Shown here: piece after piece, positions 50,364-55,976 of the stretch
Numbering within the stretch: the first letter of the stretch is position 1
Layout of the letters: every line of letters begins with the position of its first letter
Source of the DNA: Promethearchaeota archaeon
Lineage (GTDB): Archaea; Asgardarchaeota; Lokiarchaeia; Sigyniarchaeales; SOKP01
DNA: 64,000 nucleotides
Direction of reading: 5' to 3'
NCBI GenBank assembly: GCA_030599585.1
Contig: JAUVNS010000001.1
Span: 96,001-160,000 of the forward strand
Translations under genes and position numbers: made by a program
The notes under the pieces: generated by a model
The model's database searches: none
What the model was told of the DNA's origin: nothing
The model's input: the letters and a program-made list of their open reading frames with translations, nothing else

Positions 50364-51491
50364 CTACTTCCCTTTGAAGTAATCTAGCACTTTTTTAAGA
50401 CAGAGGTATGAACTTTGATTCTTGGTAACGTCACAAATAGTCGTATAGTTAACAAAAATCATGTGTTTTACCCCTGTTTTAAAATATTTTTCTACTTTCT
50501 CAATTATTTCATCGGGTGTGCCATTTAAAAAATTATCTTTGCACATCTTCATTGGAATTTTCTCATATGCTTCCAATAGTGTCTTTTTGTCGTATTTCGT
50601 TGGAATAAAATCATAGATACCATTAAAGTTTTCACCTAACGGATGTGAGATACCATAACTCTGAAAATATTCACTTGACCCTACTAGCAGTTGATTTTTA
50701 GCAAGGGGGCTTGCGAGCATTTTATCGCATTCCTCCCTTTTTTCATCTATTATTACCGGCAACGAAATACCCGGGGTTATCTCATCTGGATTCCGCCCTA
50801 CATTTTTGGCATGATTTTGAATTTTTTCTAAACTCTCTTTATAATCATCTAGATTAATACTCCAAGGCAACCAACCATCTCCCAGTTTTCCTGTCAATTC
50901 TAGCATTTGAGGACCATGAGCACCAACCCATATAGGAGGAGCCTTATTTTTTCTGTAGGGTTTTAGTGAAAGGACCGCATCATTTAATTTCCAAAATTTG
51001 CCATCAAAATCTACTTTTTTATCGTGTTTCCATAAAAGTTTTATAATTTTAATCGATTCTTCTAGTCTACTAACAGGTTTTTCCCATTTAATCCCGTATG
51101 GTGTGACATTTTCTCCCTCTCCAAATCCAATCCCAAGAATTATCCTTCCTTTTGAAATGTGATCTAAAGTTATGATTAAGTGAGCAAGTAATGCCGGATG
51201 ATGTCGAAAAGTCTCAGTAACTGCAGTTCCTATACTAACTTTTTTGGTGTTATTTGCTATGATTGCCATTACAGGAAAAATGTTATACGAATCATGCGGG
51301 TTTTTGATAACTGATGCGATGTTTACAATATTTGGAGTCCAGATTGCATCTGGAAACCAACTCATAATATGATCTGGAACCCATAGAGAATCAAAACCAG
51401 CTTTCTCATACATTTTTGTCGTTTTAATTCCGTTTTCAAAAGGAGGAGTATATGTATTAAATATTCCTATCTTTACTTCACTAATATCCAT
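50364..51491 (-). CDS. LLM-class flavin/F420-dependent oxidoreductase
   Basis: AGFDSLWVPDH, TLDHISKGRIILGIG, PPIWVGAHGP, GDGWLP. Confidence 0.9.
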   Translation of the reverse strand: MDISEVKIGIFNTYTPPFENGIKTTKMYEKAGFDSLWVPDHIMSWFPDAIWTPNIVNIASVIKNPHDSYNIFPVMAIIANNTKKVSIGTAVTETFRHHPALLAHLIITLDHISKGRIILGIGFGEGENVTPYGIKWEKPVSRLEESIKIIKLLWKHDKKVDFDGKFWKLNDAVLSLKPYRKNKAPPIWVGAHGPQMLELTGKLGDGWLPWSINLDDYKESLEKIQNHAKNVGRNPDEITPGISLPVIIDEKREECDKMLASPLAKNQLLVGSSEYFQSYGISHPLGENFNGIYDFIPTKYDKKTLLEAYEKIPMKMCKDNFLNGTPDEIIEKVEKYFKTGVKHMIFVNYTTICDVTKNQSSYLCLKKVLDYFKGK

Positions 51492-51654
51492 TTGATAACC
51501 TCAAATCTTTTTTTGGATTAATTAAATTTCAATTAAGAGATAATAGGATTTAAAGATTTACAAAAATGTGAAAGGCATTTTATTTAAAGGATATTTTTAT
51601 ATTGAAGATTAAAAGAATTTTTTTCTCATTTTCTTTAAAATTAGAATAAAAAAA

Positions 51655-51784
51655 TTAATGTATTTGATAGAAATGTTCTTCAAATTCAGGCTTGCCCTGA
51701 TACTTCTGCATGAAGATCAACGGGGCCTTTTCGATGTTCTTAAAAAGATAAGAAGGTGCTCTGATTCTTGCTTGTCTTAGAGCG
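51655..51784 (-). repeat. 130-bp direct repeat of the DUF362 gene 3' end (partner 54636-54765)
   Basis: 6 mismatches; 86-nt identical core at 51661-51746. Confidence 0.95.
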
Positions 51785-51923
51785 GTGTTGCGCCACAGTT
51801 GAGATATTGCCCATCATACACCACCAGGTTGCGCGCTATTCGCGTCACTACGGTAGTGGTACCTTAAATATGTATCCTTCGGTTCAATGTACCACTAACT
51901 ACGTTCTGCTGAAGTGTCACAAC
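51784..51923 (-). other. GC-rich structured non-coding element (MITE/IS end or ncRNA)
   Basis: Imperfect terminal IR 51787-51796/51914-51923; perfect 9-bp IR 51854-51862/51889-51897; CGCG hairpin. Confidence 0.5.
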
Positions 51924-52005
51924 TAAATGTTTGAATTGTTCTGTCAAGGATTTGAATAGAAACAAAGTAGATATATAAATTGGATTATCCTATGTTGACG
52001 AAGTA

Positions 52006-52638
52006 TCATCGATAATTTTCTTTAGATTTATAAATCAATTCAGCCATTTTCTGGAAGACTGCTTTTACATTTTCTCCAGTAAGAGCTGATGTCTCAAAAT
52101 AGGGTGCATTTAATTTCTCACCTAAATGTTCACCCATAGGTAAAATAATTTTCCTTTCTTCTTTTAGATGTGACTTATTTCCGATTAATATTCTAGGTAT
52201 TCCACTTAATCCATACTTGACAGCTGCGCTATACCAGTTGTTAATATTACTAAATGTACTTGAGCGCGTGATATCAAATACTAGAAGCATGCCATCGGCC
52301 CCATTGAAATATGGACGGTGGAGCATGTAGAATTGAGGTTGTCCCGCGATATTCCAAAACACTAATGTAACTGTGGCATTGTAATCGTTCAGTTCGATTG
52401 TTTCTTTTAAAATTTCAACACCAACCGTTGGCAGATAATTTGCTTCAAATTTATCTGTAGCAAATCTAGAAAGAAGGTCCACTTTTCCGACAGCAGGATC
52501 TCCTATAACAATAACTTTATAAATTGCTTCAAGTCTCCCTTTAAAAGCTATTTTTCCTTCTTTTCGTTCTAAATCGCTCATGTGTTTTATGATGTTTTCG
52601 AATTTGGAATAATGAAATATTTTTGAATGAATTAACAA
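52006..52638 (-). CDS. Rab-like GTPase with degenerate G motifs (probable pseudo-GTPase); start probably ATG 52581
   Basis: GDPAVGKVD, WNIAGQ, GNKSH, ETSA. Confidence 0.85.
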   Translation of the reverse strand: MLIHSKIFHYSKFENIIKHMSDLERKEGKIAFKGRLEAIYKVIVIGDPAVGKVDLLSRFATDKFEANYLPTVGVEILKETIELNDYNATVTLVFWNIAGQPQFYMLHRPYFNGADGMLLVFDITRSSTFSNINNWYSAAVKYGLSGIPRILIGNKSHLKEERKIILPMGEHLGEKLNAPYFETSALTGENVKAVFQKMAELIYKSKENYR

Positions 52639-52652
52639 AAAAAATAAAGAAT

Positions 52653-53279
52653 TTAAAATTTCCTTGATTTTCCTTTCATATCGAAATTCGCTACAACTCC
52701 ACTTCTATTCTTGAACTCCCAATTTCTATCAAAATCATTATAGTTCCAGAAATGAGTGTTGCATATTTTTAAATCTGAAATATACAAACCGAATATAGAA
52801 TTTTCAAGTCTTTGAGGATTTTTTCCATCGAGTCCTGGAGTATAGGATAATTTCATTTCTCCGTAAGGCATAGTAATGTGGAAAGTATTTCCCTCTTGAT
52901 TAAAATTAATATCCACATATTTTATTCCTAAAACTTTCGATAGAATCATCCCATCCTGAATTTTATTAGTAAAAAAAGGTTCTAAATATTTCCTTTGTTC
53001 TTCAGTAGTTTTATCGCTTATATACACCCCTCCTTCTCCGCCTTTACTCATTACATCAGCAGCTTTATTAGAATATAAATCAATTACATGAATTGCCATT
53101 ACACCGCCGATATCAACATCACCTATTTTTCCTTCGTCATATTGGAATAATTGAAATGATTTACAAGGAGTTTCTCTGTCTCTTCCAAAATAAAACGAGC
53201 AATGCCCTTCTGCTGCGCATGCCTCATACCATCTACCTTTTGCACTCCAACTAATTCTTTCTTTTACTTCTTTAGACAT
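52653..53279 (-). CDS. DUF1326 family protein
   Basis: WSAKGRWYEAC...C...C, DEGKIGDVDIGG, YISDKTTEEQR. Confidence 0.75.
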   Translation of the reverse strand: MSKEVKERISWSAKGRWYEACAAEGHCSFYFGRDRETPCKSFQLFQYDEGKIGDVDIGGVMAIHVIDLYSNKAADVMSKGGEGGVYISDKTTEEQRKYLEPFFTNKIQDGMILSKVLGIKYVDINFNQEGNTFHITMPYGEMKLSYTPGLDGKNPQRLENSIFGLYISDLKICNTHFWNYNDFDRNWEFKNRSGVVANFDMKGKSRKF

Positions 53280-53536
53280 TATTTCACACCTCTATCTTTA
53301 CAAATTTATAATAATTATAATTTTTATTTAACGGTAAATAAAGCTTTTCATGAGAAAAGAACTTAAAATCATATTTAATATTTTTGACTCCTTTGTCTAA
53401 ATATGTGTTTTAAAATTTATGGATAGAAACGGGAATATAAATAAAATTTAATTTATTTGACAAAAAAGTAAATACTTATATTTGATGAAATAGAAAATAA
53501 GTAGTATCCAATTTTAATTAAGGATGTCGAATAAAA

Positions 53537-54241
53537 ATGAATAAATCTAAATTAACAAACAATATTTTTCTGTTCATTATATTTTCACTATTCTTTTCAA
53601 ATATCGTCGCAATTGGCTATTCTAACGAAGTAGGAATAACAGATGGTATGTATATTAAACATTTTCTTACTCAACATTCACATCTGGATGGGTGGCCAAC
53701 AACACTCACTTTTTCTAAGACTTCAGATGATCTCTTTCATGTTACCTGGAGATGGGAATCTCCTAGCGATATGGGTAGTGGTCATTGGGATGTAACTATC
53801 AGCACTAATATTGTATCAAATATGGATAATTTTGGTCCTCCTGATGATTCTCATAATGGGTGTTGGATTTACATTAATGCTTCCCTTAATGATCAAATTA
53901 TAATGTATAATCACCCTAAGGAATCATATACTGGAGATGGAGACACTGTATATAATATTACTGGTGAATACAGTATTACTGGTGGCACGATGGATGTTTC
54001 TATGGAGGTTTGGGAATTAGAAGATGCTTTTGGGAGTGTGCTTTGGTATGAAAAAAGTAAAGGATTTCTTGTAAATGGCACAAATCGCTATAATGCATAT
54101 TGGGAGAAATATGAATTTATTGAGACTAATGCCTTCAGTAGTCCAGAAGGGGGGATTCCAGGATATAATTACTTTTTTCTATTTGGTTTGTTATTAGTAA
54201 GTGCAATAGTTATATTAAAAAATAAATCAATTAGGGAATAA
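53537..54241 (+). CDS. secreted/surface protein with IPGY-type (Loki-CTERM-like) C-terminal anchor
   Basis: Signal peptide; LWYEKSKGFLV; GGIPGY + TM + basic tail. Confidence 0.8.
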   Translation: MNKSKLTNNIFLFIIFSLFFSNIVAIGYSNEVGITDGMYIKHFLTQHSHLDGWPTTLTFSKTSDDLFHVTWRWESPSDMGSGHWDVTISTNIVSNMDNFGPPDDSHNGCWIYINASLNDQIIMYNHPKESYTGDGDTVYNITGEYSITGGTMDVSMEVWELEDAFGSVLWYEKSKGFLVNGTNRYNAYWEKYEFIETNAFSSPEGGIPGYNYFFLFGLLLVSAIVILKNKSIRE

Positions 54242-54321
54242 AATTATAATATAAACCTCAAAATAGCAATTCGCATGTCAAAAGTAGAAGAAAGACCACG
54301 CTATAAATAGTTTTTTTGTTT

Positions 54322-54498
54322 TTAATTTTTTATCACTTCTTTGATTTTTGTCGATGATTTAACGCTTGATTTCGTTTTTTTCACTTTAATTTCAACAAAA
54401 GCAGTGACAGGGATTAAAATTCCAATTGGAATTATTAATGTCATTATGATTACGAATGTATTAGCTGAATTGAGATCGGTATCACCTTGATTATTTGT
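54322..54498 (-). pseudogene. orphan 3' end of a surface-protein gene (TM anchor + basic tail)
   Basis: TNNQGDTDLNSANTFVIIMTLIIPIGILIPVTAFVEIKVKKTK...KN*, preceded in frame by a stop. Confidence 0.5.
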
Positions 54499-54635
54499 CT
54501 ATATGTATGTTTATAATTCTTTCTCATTTGAAAGGGGTGAATATTACAAATAGAAAAAAAAGATGAAAAGAAAGATAATAACCCTTTATTTGTTTAATCC
54601 CTAAATTTTAAGTAGTAGGCGGTTAAAGAAGAAAG

Positions 54636-55976
54636 TTAATTTATTTGATAGAAATGTTCTTCAAATTCAGGCTTGCCCTGATACTTCTGCATGAAGATCA
54701 ACGGGGCCTTTTCGATGTTCTTAAAAATATACGAGGGTGCTCTGATTCCTGCTTGCCTTAGAGCGTCTTGTATTTGATTAACTTCAGGTGGGCATCCTTC
54801 AATTGCGATCGCTTCTTTAATATTTGGATGGTCCTTGCGCTTATTGATGATGCATTGTCCAAGCAATATTGTTTTATTCTTCCCCTCAGAAGGTTCCATG
54901 ATTTTTCCAGTAAGTACTTCTACATTGTCAAAATCTTTACCCTTCCACGCTGATTTAATTGCTATAAGTAAAACTGCATTATAAAAACTACAATAAGTAC
55001 ATATAGTTTCATCATATTTTGGATAACTTAGCCCTCCAATACCCGCTTTTGCGTAAGTAAGAGGTAACGTATTATTATTTTTGTAGATATAATCCCATCC
55101 ATGAAGCACTGCAAGATCTTCTATGCTTTCTCCTTTGACATCAATATCTGATAAATCTAATGGACGATTTCTGTCCTTAGCTGCTTGTACTAAATGTGGA
55201 ACAGCAGTAGGAGATATGCCTAATAAACTAGAACCCACCATATCCGCGGAGAGCATGTTTTTGGAAGCAACTATTATATCGCTTCTATGAGCTTTACCGT
55301 CAAAAGATGGACCTCGTTCAAGTGTATAAATCCCATCAATGATTGTAAGACCAAGCGGTGCTTTATCTGCAAGGTGTGACACATTATAATGTAAGGTGTA
55401 TTTGGGATCGTCCCCATGGAACTTTTTACGCGAGGGAATATTTATCAAGCCTTTCAGATTTTTTAACCCTAAACTAACAACGCATTGCGCGTGAGTTTTA
55501 AGAACAGGAACATCAATTAAAAAATCTGAATGAAGCATATCTGCATTCATTTTTGCGGATACCCCTTCTGCTAACTCTACTTTTTCAAATGGTCGTTGAA
55601 AAATATCGTATACTTTTACACCATATCGTTTCTTAAGAATATTGTATCCAAGCTTTTCGAATGCATCTTTAGATGTTTCTCTATCTTTTGGGCTTTCAGT
55701 GACTATTCCTTCTCCGATAGTAATGTCAGTTACACCATGCTCTTTTAACAATATTAAAATTTCCTCCATTACGCTCGAAGTTGTAAGCATACCCCATTTA
55801 GGAAAGTCACAATGCCTATTCCAATAAACCAAATTAGGTTTTATGAAAACCTTTGCGTTAGGATCAAGTTTTTCAAATCCATTTACAAGTTTGACAGCTT
55901 TACGAACAGAATCTTTTTCCTTTTCATATTTTACTATAGATACACTCGATTTACTCATATATAAACATCTTTTCAT
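54636..55976 (-). CDS. DUF362 domain protein
   Basis: VFIKPNL, IGEG, VPVLKTH, SLGLKNLKG, IIDGI; C-term CTYC, GQC, GCPP. Confidence 0.9.
   Translation of the reverse strand: MKRCLYMSKSSVSIVKYEKEKDSVRKAVKLVNGFEKLDPNAKVFIKPNLVYWNRHCDFPKWGMLTTSSVMEEILILLKEHGVTDITIGEGIVTESPKDRETSKDAFEKLGYNILKKRYGVKVYDIFQRPFEKVELAEGVSAKMNADMLHSDFLIDVPVLKTHAQCVVSLGLKNLKGLINIPSRKKFHGDDPKYTLHYNVSHLADKAPLGLTIIDGIYTLERGPSFDGKAHRSDIIVASKNMLSADMVGSSLLGISPTAVPHLVQAAKDRNRPLDLSDIDVKGESIEDLAVLHGWDYIYKNNNTLPLTYAKAGIGGLSYPKYDETICTYCSFYNAVLLIAIKSAWKGKDFDNVEVLTGKIMEPSEGKNKTILLGQCIINKRKDHPNIKEAIAIEGCPPEVNQIQDALRQAGIRAPSYIFKNIEKAPLIFMQKYQGKPEFEEHFYQIN

Follow-up and report, generated by a model that had tools for sequence, protein, structure and literature searches.

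A 64,000-nucleotide stretch of an Asgard archaeal genome, referred to below as the window, carries a Rab-like gene in which three nucleotide-binding motifs are altered. This raises the question of whether such a gene still encodes a functional protein and, if it does, whether that protein works as a nucleotide switch, in some other way, or as the cargo of a mobile element.

The degenerate Rab-like coding sequence occupies window positions 52006..52581 on the minus strand and encodes a protein of 191 aa from an ATG start. The original prediction placed the gene at 52006-52638. An open reading frame of that extent does exist on the minus strand in the mechanical listing, but the TTG at 52638 is a mere extension of it: all close homologues are 190-191 aa long and begin with MSD.ERKEG, and the true start is consequently the ATG at 52581. 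The assignment as a degenerate Rab-like paralogue rests on the DNA reading, the Pfam match, the homologue lengths and the AF2 model. The protein matched Pfam Ras (PF00071) with an E-value of 3.8e-43 over profile positions 1-161 of 162. Its closest sequence match in the PDB was the Thorarchaeota Rab 7EZB (E-value 1.9e-36), and Sec4, Rab3 and Rab1 were also matched. The AF2 model (pLDDT 79) showed the strand and helix order of small GTPases, with six strands and five helices, and Foldseek matched it to Rab structures with a probability of 1.00, the best being Thorarchaeota Rab, Rab11 and Rab25. The protein ends in Lys-Glu-Asn-Tyr-Arg without a cysteine and thus lacks the geranylgeranylation motif of eukaryotic Rabs. 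Names attached to its close homologues are Promethearchaeota, Lokiarchaeota, Hermodarchaeota and Thorarchaeota. Judged by sequence, the window protein is a descendant of the Asgard Rab-like GTPases. The host genome is a 4.85-Mb assembly with 77 Ras-family matches; among its roughly 45 well-aligned Ras-family genes, the window gene is the only one that is non-canonical in G1, G3 and G4 jointly.

The three substitutions named in the original prediction (GKT to GKV, WD to WN and NKxD to NKSH) were all read directly in the DNA, and the frame and the YLPTVG, AGQPQF and ETSA motifs, described there as intact, are all present. In the P-loop (G1; residues 27-35, GDPAVGKVD; 52477..52503, minus strand), residue 34 is threonine in 99% of normal copies and valine here (codon GTG, 52480-52482). 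A fourth change, absent from the original prediction, lies beside it: Asp replaces Ser at residue 35 (GKVD vs GKTS). In G3 (residues 76-81, WNIAGQ; 52339..52356, minus strand) Asp77 is replaced by Asn (codon AAT, 52351-52353), with Gly80 and Gln81 kept, and in G4 (residues 135-138, NKSH; 52168..52179, minus strand) Asp138 is replaced by His (codon CAT, 52168-52170); both positions are Asp in all normal copies. Switch I/G2 (residues 49-54, YLPTVG; 52420..52437, minus strand) keeps Thr52, and G5 (residues 163-166, ETSA; 52084..52095, minus strand) is intact in the window copy. Measured against the motifs of a working switch, the protein departs from GxxxxGK[S/T] in G1 (GDPAVGKV), from DxxG in G3 (NIAG) and from [N/T]KxD in G4 (NKSH), failing three of the five tests, and agrees with the G2 threonine (Thr52) and the SA of G5 (ETSA).

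The family from which this copy departs is widespread and uniform. Of the 134 other genomes from the host's taxonomic family, 109 contain it, most of them once only, with 60-83% identity. Canonical GKT/S, WD and NKxD motifs were present in 94 of the best 120 database proteins, these 94 being invariant at the motifs, and nearly all copies extracted from genomes were also canonical in G1, G3 and G4. The intact paralogue sought after the original prediction is present in the same genome (G000:C26:8164-8733), is 77% identical to the window copy and carries GKTS, WDIAGQ and GNKVD. It lies in a deeply conserved cluster, shared across genera, in which a PUA-domain gene and the Rab-like GTPase are followed by a 212-aa coiled-coil gene and a divergently oriented 296-aa longin::Arf-like GTPase. 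The 296-aa protein consists of an N-terminal domain followed by an Arf-like GTPase. Folded alone, the N-terminal domain gave a pLDDT of 81 and a strand-strand-helix-strand-strand-strand-helix order, and its fold matches were the longin domains of AP sigma, COPI zeta, Sec22b and VAMP7 and the roadblock proteins LAMTOR and MglB. The cluster merits study in its own right, as a probable physical pair of GTPases encoded together with a coiled-coil protein.

Other unusual members of the family were also observed. Four genomes (G241, G247, G242 and G233; loci L041, L042, L045 and L048) carry tandem second Rab-like copies with WEVAGQ in G3 (Asp to Glu) and otherwise normal motifs. In five others (G257, G236, G237, G263 and G238; L066-L071), Rab-like paralogues lie inside long proteins of 290-880 aa, to which N-terminal domains, transmembrane tails at the C-terminus or a further, strongly degenerate Rab-like domain are added; G3 or G4 is eroded in several of them. 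No natural fusion of the Rab-like family to the longin::Arf-like protein was found, the long forms of these five genomes carrying other parts at their N- or C-terminus.

An origin of the window gene as a recent within-genome duplicate of the intact copy was considered and rejected, as its dS is 1.14 to that copy and 0.43-0.56 to the orthologues of the G268 group. This difference indicates that the window copy arose in, or was exchanged with, the neighbouring G268-group lineage.

The altered copy has relatives. Eleven further database clusters (P0002-5, 7, 8, 10, 18, 21, 86 and 109) group with the window protein, and the degenerate groups are nested (SH-aLRT 94-99) within the subclade that comprises the normal orthologues of G268, G231, G244, G248 and G253. 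The protein tree was inferred quickly under LG+G4, and the codon tree deviates from it in detail, so recombination within the degenerate clade is possible. Among the twelve members, P0021 and P0010 have only WN changed and P0008 only G1, P0007 combines the G1 change and WN with Gln81Arg, the window copy and P0002-5 combine G1, WN and NKxH, and P0018, P0086 and P0109 have Glu or Lys in G1 and Arg before the switch I Thr. Clade members have Val, Leu, Met, Glu or Lys at residue 34, Asn occupies the G3 position in 10 of 12 members and His the G4 position in 8 of 12. Pro51, retained in the window copy, is Ser or Arg in most members, and Ala166 is Ile or Thr in half of them. The order of losses, as read from these sequences, is WN first, the G1 Thr next and NKxH last, with intermediates surviving among close relatives. 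Thus, the substitutions are not private to the window copy but recur stepwise in other genomes, although the triple change was absent from all 58 other extracted copies (all matches in 41 congeners plus eight copies from other genera).

A second, separate clade (P0071, P0092, P0098, P0114, P0120 and others) retains GKT and WD and carries NKxH together with ETS[T/E/N]. The restriction of its changes to the base-contact motifs hints at an altered base specificity there, and the presence of NKxH in this clade means that the G4 Asp-to-His change arose at least twice.

All ten members of the degenerate clade for which DNA was available, each from an independent contig, have an intact frame of 190-191 codons with no stop or frameshift, at dS values of up to 0.58. 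The maximum-likelihood omega (GY+F3X4, IQ-TREE, a single value per data set) was 0.245 for the degenerate clade, 0.103 for the five nearest normal orthologues and 0.059 for 19 normal copies. Pairwise Nei-Gojobori medians were 0.21 for the clade and 0.11 for normal pairs of similar dS. Four separate pairs each departed significantly from neutrality (p = 1e-5 to 1.5e-13), with a non-synonymous share far below the neutral expectation. The dN/dS comparison thus points to purifying selection on a gene that is not decaying. Since the clade omega is similar to that of the neighbouring accessory DUF1326 gene (0.14-0.32), the value shows that the gene is selected but not for what. We consider it very probable that the window gene encodes a selected, functional protein.

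The distribution of changes along the protein is more informative. We preset 14 pocket positions (Gly27, Gly32, Lys33, Thr34 and Ser35; Thr52; Asp77, Gly80 and Gln81; Asn135, Lys136 and Asp138; Ser165 and Ala166). These sites account for 0 of 243 inferred changes in the 19 normal copies and for 16 of 124 in the degenerate clade, or 1.14 changes per site versus 0.61 elsewhere (binomial p = 0.02), which makes the pocket the class of sites with the highest rate of change in the clade. This indicates that the constraint on Mg2+ and base contacts was released or reversed while the remainder of the protein was kept. No site in the protein changes more often than position 34, the G1 Thr, with six changes among ten clade sequences, and of the five residues at which P0007 and P0008 differ, four fall within G motifs. 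The clade is changed at ten positions whose invariance among normal copies is 95% or more; five of them (34, 35, 77, 138 and 166) are in G motifs or beside the P-loop, and position 51, preceding the switch I Thr, is also among the ten. Lys33, Thr52, Gly80, Asn135, Lys136 and Ser165 are invariant in the clade.

Taken together, the best explanation, to which we assign a probability of about 0.5, is that the window gene is a young, lineage-specific Rab-like paralogue that has given up key residues of its nucleotide pocket and acts through inherited protein contacts. The residues that hold Mg2+ (G1 Thr and G3 Asp) and the guanine-reading G4 Asp have been lost, together with the G5 Ala in relatives, whereas purifying selection has kept the Rab fold, the interswitch/switch II surface and an N-terminal extension specific to the family. 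Cycling between Mg-GTP and GDP states has most likely ceased in such a protein; from the motif pattern we regard the loss of normal Mg-GTP switching as likely. Instead, it would most likely use the contacts inherited from the normal copy. It could bind the longin domain of the longin::Arf-like GTPase, serving either as a decoy that competes independently of nucleotide or as a fixed subunit. Retained fold, lost motifs and purifying selection occur together here, and on these features the protein is classed as a putative pseudoGTPase in the broad sense, of any class.

The docking proposal was modelled with the degenerate copy, the longin::Arf-like GTPase and the coiled-coil protein of the normal cluster. 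The complex model scored 0.62, compared with 0.15 for the best of three controls. In calibration, 58 of 80 solved complexes and 2 of 110 mismatched pairs attained this score, counts that are only a rough guide because our own alignments and three chains were used. Runs agreed in at least 92% of contacts, with a partner pLDDT of at least 78. Confident predicted contacts involved residues 12-17, 29-46 and 100-118 on the longin side and, on the GTPase side, the N-terminal extension (11-22), the interswitch (53-59 and 72-76) and switch II (86-96). Within the clade, identity to the normal consensus is 0.83 at the predicted interface, 0.84 in the rest of the protein and 0.73 in the pocket. With 77% identity to the probable true partner, and with GTPase-longin/roadblock complexes already solved, the pass may reflect likeness or model memory; what the model indicates is that the degenerate copy resembles the normal binder, not binding itself. 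The conservation of switch II and interswitch, together with the docking model, fits a decoy or scaffold role. Action on the longin partner is accordingly proposed tentatively, at somewhat less than even odds.

The main rival explanation is that the protein still binds nucleotide but in an altered way (weakly or without Mg, locked in a GDP-like state, or with another base) and serves as a re-tuned switch or sensor. The six clade-invariant residues listed above make some residual nucleotide binding possible. The re-emergence of NKxH in the second clade, alongside ETS[T/E/N], is more suggestive of selection acting on the base pocket than of simple loss, and the G4 His and the G5 Ile/Thr both face the base. 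IFT22/RABL5 reportedly binds GTP despite atypical G4 and G5 motifs. However, residue 34 takes Val, Leu, Met, Glu or Lys without preference, as abandonment of the Mg site predicts; furthermore, an acidic residue now follows the P-loop Lys-x, and three independent contacts were lost together. We consider a retained but altered nucleotide chemistry possible, though on balance rather unlikely.

A more elaborate proposal concerns a second longin::Arf-like gene of the same genome (G000:C50:16659-18143; L119:4657-6147), which codes for a 496-aa protein extended at its C-terminus by a roadblock domain and follows a 293-aa coiled-coil/zinc-ribbon gene. Within the genus (42 congeners), this type was found only in the present genome. 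Its P-loop reads GKND. Non-canonical P-loops occur in 30 of its best 120 relatives, 26 of them GKxD (variants GK[S/E/N/T/R/G/Q]D), and some of these relatives have WN or NNQD; the shift from GKT[S/T] to GKxD is the same acidic change as in the degenerate Rab-like clade. In the longin domain of this type, the predicted GTPase-binding face has 0.68-0.73 identity to the normal consensus versus 0.81-0.83 for the rest of the domain, the values for the copy of the present genome being 0.73 and 0.83, whereas face and rest are alike in normal longin copies (0.88 and 0.90). A parallel arrangement was seen in genome G234 (L061, G234:C38:95000-106000), in which a tandem duplication beside the normal cluster includes an extra longin::Arf-like copy with the P-loop GKEE and two extra Rab-like copies with GKSE/NKSH/ETSE and GKTS/NKTH/ETSE. 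These observations suggest two degenerate paralogues working as a pair: the degenerate Rab-like protein and the second longin::Arf-like protein could form a nucleotide-blind "shadow" two-GTPase module, with a complex of its own that is kept apart from the working pair. A general tendency of the two GTPases to be duplicated together found no support, since a second longin::Arf-like match was found only in G000, G234 and G247, three of the 11 genomes with extra Rab-like copies; in G247, the extra Rab-like and second longin::Arf-like copies are unlinked. Among the metagenomes looked up, a single one (JGI 3300033141) was common to both degenerate families, too weak a co-occurrence to be used. We hold the shadow module to be doubtful. 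If true, it would represent a natural GTPase pair becoming a fixed scaffold in the archaeal lineage nearest eukaryotes.

A different account of the gene starts from its surroundings. The gene order in the window is HDAC, a luciferase-like gene, a 42-aa DUF362 fragment, a GC-rich element, the GTPase, DUF1326, a 234-aa gene with no Pfam match, and DUF362. The fragment is the left copy of a direct repeat of 140 nt (51645..51784; 94% identity) and represents a displaced DUF362 3' end; the right copy (54626..54765) is the genuine 3' end of DUF362 (54636..55976, minus strand). With a repeat spacing of 2981, the repeat bounds a 2981-bp segment that holds the window gene, so the "islet" of the original prediction is a real structure. 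The degenerate gene was absent from all 41 congeneric species genomes searched, in which the flanking genes are present; thus, both flanking direct repeats at a gene 3' end and a patchy distribution, as looked for in an island, were found. Beyond this, the claim that the islet carries accessory cargo fared less well: the open reading frames within 51645-54765 are the GTPase, DUF1326 and the 234-aa protein, with no integrase, transposase or other mobility gene; base composition is not deviant (GC content 0.313 at 52001-54000 versus 0.28-0.37 across the window); and in 10 environmental relatives the gene occupies one fixed chromosomal position beside HDAC. Scans of the window for tRNA genes and Rfam families gave no matches.

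At the left junction of the segment lies the GC-rich element, of about 157 nt (51784-51940), also without an Rfam or tRNA match. Copies of it were found elsewhere in the genome at C21:277250-277406 (98%) and C21:277489-277648 (74%), with pieces on C21, C16 (96%), C32, C34, C39 and C12.

The same site recurs outside this genome. In environmental contigs with enough flank, the GTPase gene ends 46-50 bp from the end of a converging HDAC-family gene, and it usually follows DUF1326. In the present genome, a luciferase-like monooxygenase gene (50364-51491) and the DUF362 fragment stand between the two, and in one contig (L081) the genes are arranged as DUF362, luciferase-like gene, GTPase. HDAC directly adjoins DUF1326, with the GTPase absent, in G242, G231, G254 and G246, and tblastn at E-values up to 1e-3 detected no GTPase remnant between the two genes in these four genomes. 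Other congeners have the luciferase-like gene or DUF362 after HDAC. From these gene orders, the HDAC-DUF362 interval is evidently a variable spot in this genus. The DUF1326 gene itself (52653..53279, minus strand; assigned from Pfam and the loci of relatives) is the usual but not obligatory co-oriented upstream neighbour. As an obligate partner of the GTPase it was rejected, because it stands beside HDAC without the GTPase in the same four genomes and is replaced by an 82-aa ORF in L114 and L116.

The locus could accordingly be read as a small integrase-less mobile islet from a related strain, with the window gene as cargo that interferes with the GTPase signalling of the recipient to the benefit of the element. 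The repeat around the segment, the other genomic copies of the left-junction element, the absence of the gene from 41 congeners that have its flanking genes, and the lower dS to normal genes of the G268 group (0.43-0.56) than to the normal copy of its own genome (1.14) all agree with such transfer. The segment, however, has no mobility gene and a window-like GC content, and the gene keeps one position beside HDAC in 10 metagenome contigs. Moreover, its dS against shared relatives (0.28-0.54) is similar to that of the flanking genes. The fixed position and the matching dS fit ordinary chromosomal inheritance with inter-strain recombination, and a mobile islet is in our judgement quite improbable.

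A functionless duplicate on its way to a pseudogene, which would agree with an omega 2.4 times that of the nearest normal orthologues and with the loss of formerly invariant residues, is hardly credible given an omega of 0.245, p-values of at most 1e-5 against neutrality in each of four separate pairs, ten independently sampled genes without stop or frameshift, and the conservation of non-pocket and predicted-interface residues; neutral decay with unique substitutions, named in the original prediction as its possible refutation, is contradicted by this omega and by the recurrence of the substitutions in relatives.

We return to the preferred reading, a paralogue with a degenerate pocket acting through protein contacts, and compare it with known systems. 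Longin and roadblock domains are paired with small GTPases in SRX-SRbeta, MglB-MglA, Ragulator-Rag and Mon1-Ccz1-Rab7. The modelled contact resembles these pairs in placing the first longin helix and the sheet edge on the interswitch and switch II of the GTPase. It differs from them in that the longin domain and an Arf-like GTPase of its own form a single polypeptide and that the N-terminal extension of the Rab-like protein joins the predicted contact.

Laboratory dominant-negative alleles offer a second comparison. They include Ras S17N and the Rab Ser/Thr-to-Asn changes in G1, and Ras D119N and Rab5 D136N in G4; substitutions corresponding to those at Ras S17 and D119 are a classical way to obtain alleles that are poor in nucleotide and sequester regulators. 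The window protein is altered at the equivalent positions, those of the Mg2+-binding hydroxyl and the guanine-reading Asp, and shares its cell with a wild-type copy. In contrast to the laboratory alleles, its changes are natural, fixed and combined with Asp to Asn in G3. The intact copy in the same cell and the S17/D119-type changes favour a natural competitor or a fixed, switch-less subunit.

Among archaeal proteins, the closest characterized relative is the Thorarchaeota Rab (7EZB/7EZD/7EZE; PMC10933270), which shares the Rab-like core, the short form and the lack of a C-terminal prenylation cysteine, a lack general to Asgard Rab-like proteins (PMC10933270). Thor-Rab has canonical G motifs and binds GDP and GTP-gamma-S with Mg2+ (Tran et al. 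2024, PMC10933270), whereas the window protein is without the G1 Thr, the G3 Asp and the G4 Asp.

Class i eukaryotic pseudoGTPases include the N-terminal domain of AAGAB, CENP-M and the pG1 and pG2 domains of p190RhoGAP (PMC12490416, PMC5593906). The window protein resembles them in its GTPase fold, its replaced G-motif residues, the selection acting on it and a presumed role in protein-protein contacts. The AAGAB pseudoGTPase domain, moreover, binds a longin-fold protein, AP sigma (PMC12490416, PMC5593906), and the AAGAB-AP sigma complex 9DDT was among the fold matches of the N-terminal domain of the longin::Arf-like partner. No paper on archaeal pseudoGTPases was found in the literature library searched. 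The eukaryotic examples are ancient and have nearly all motifs erased; the putative pseudoGTPase of the window, as judged from its sequence, is young (dS of about 0.45 from a working orthologue), stand-alone and archaeal, has extant intermediates, and, unlike them, keeps Lys33, Thr52, Asn135 and Lys136.

The degenerate copy is thus probably a "dead" GTPase that works by partner binding and not by switching. PseudoGTPases have been known mostly as ancient eukaryotic proteins of untraceable origin; what is new here is a young, stand-alone case whose parent and intermediates are still present. With parent, intermediates and end state all extant among close relatives of one Asgard genus, the order of losses, the biochemistry and the binding surface become directly testable with a few recombinant proteins.
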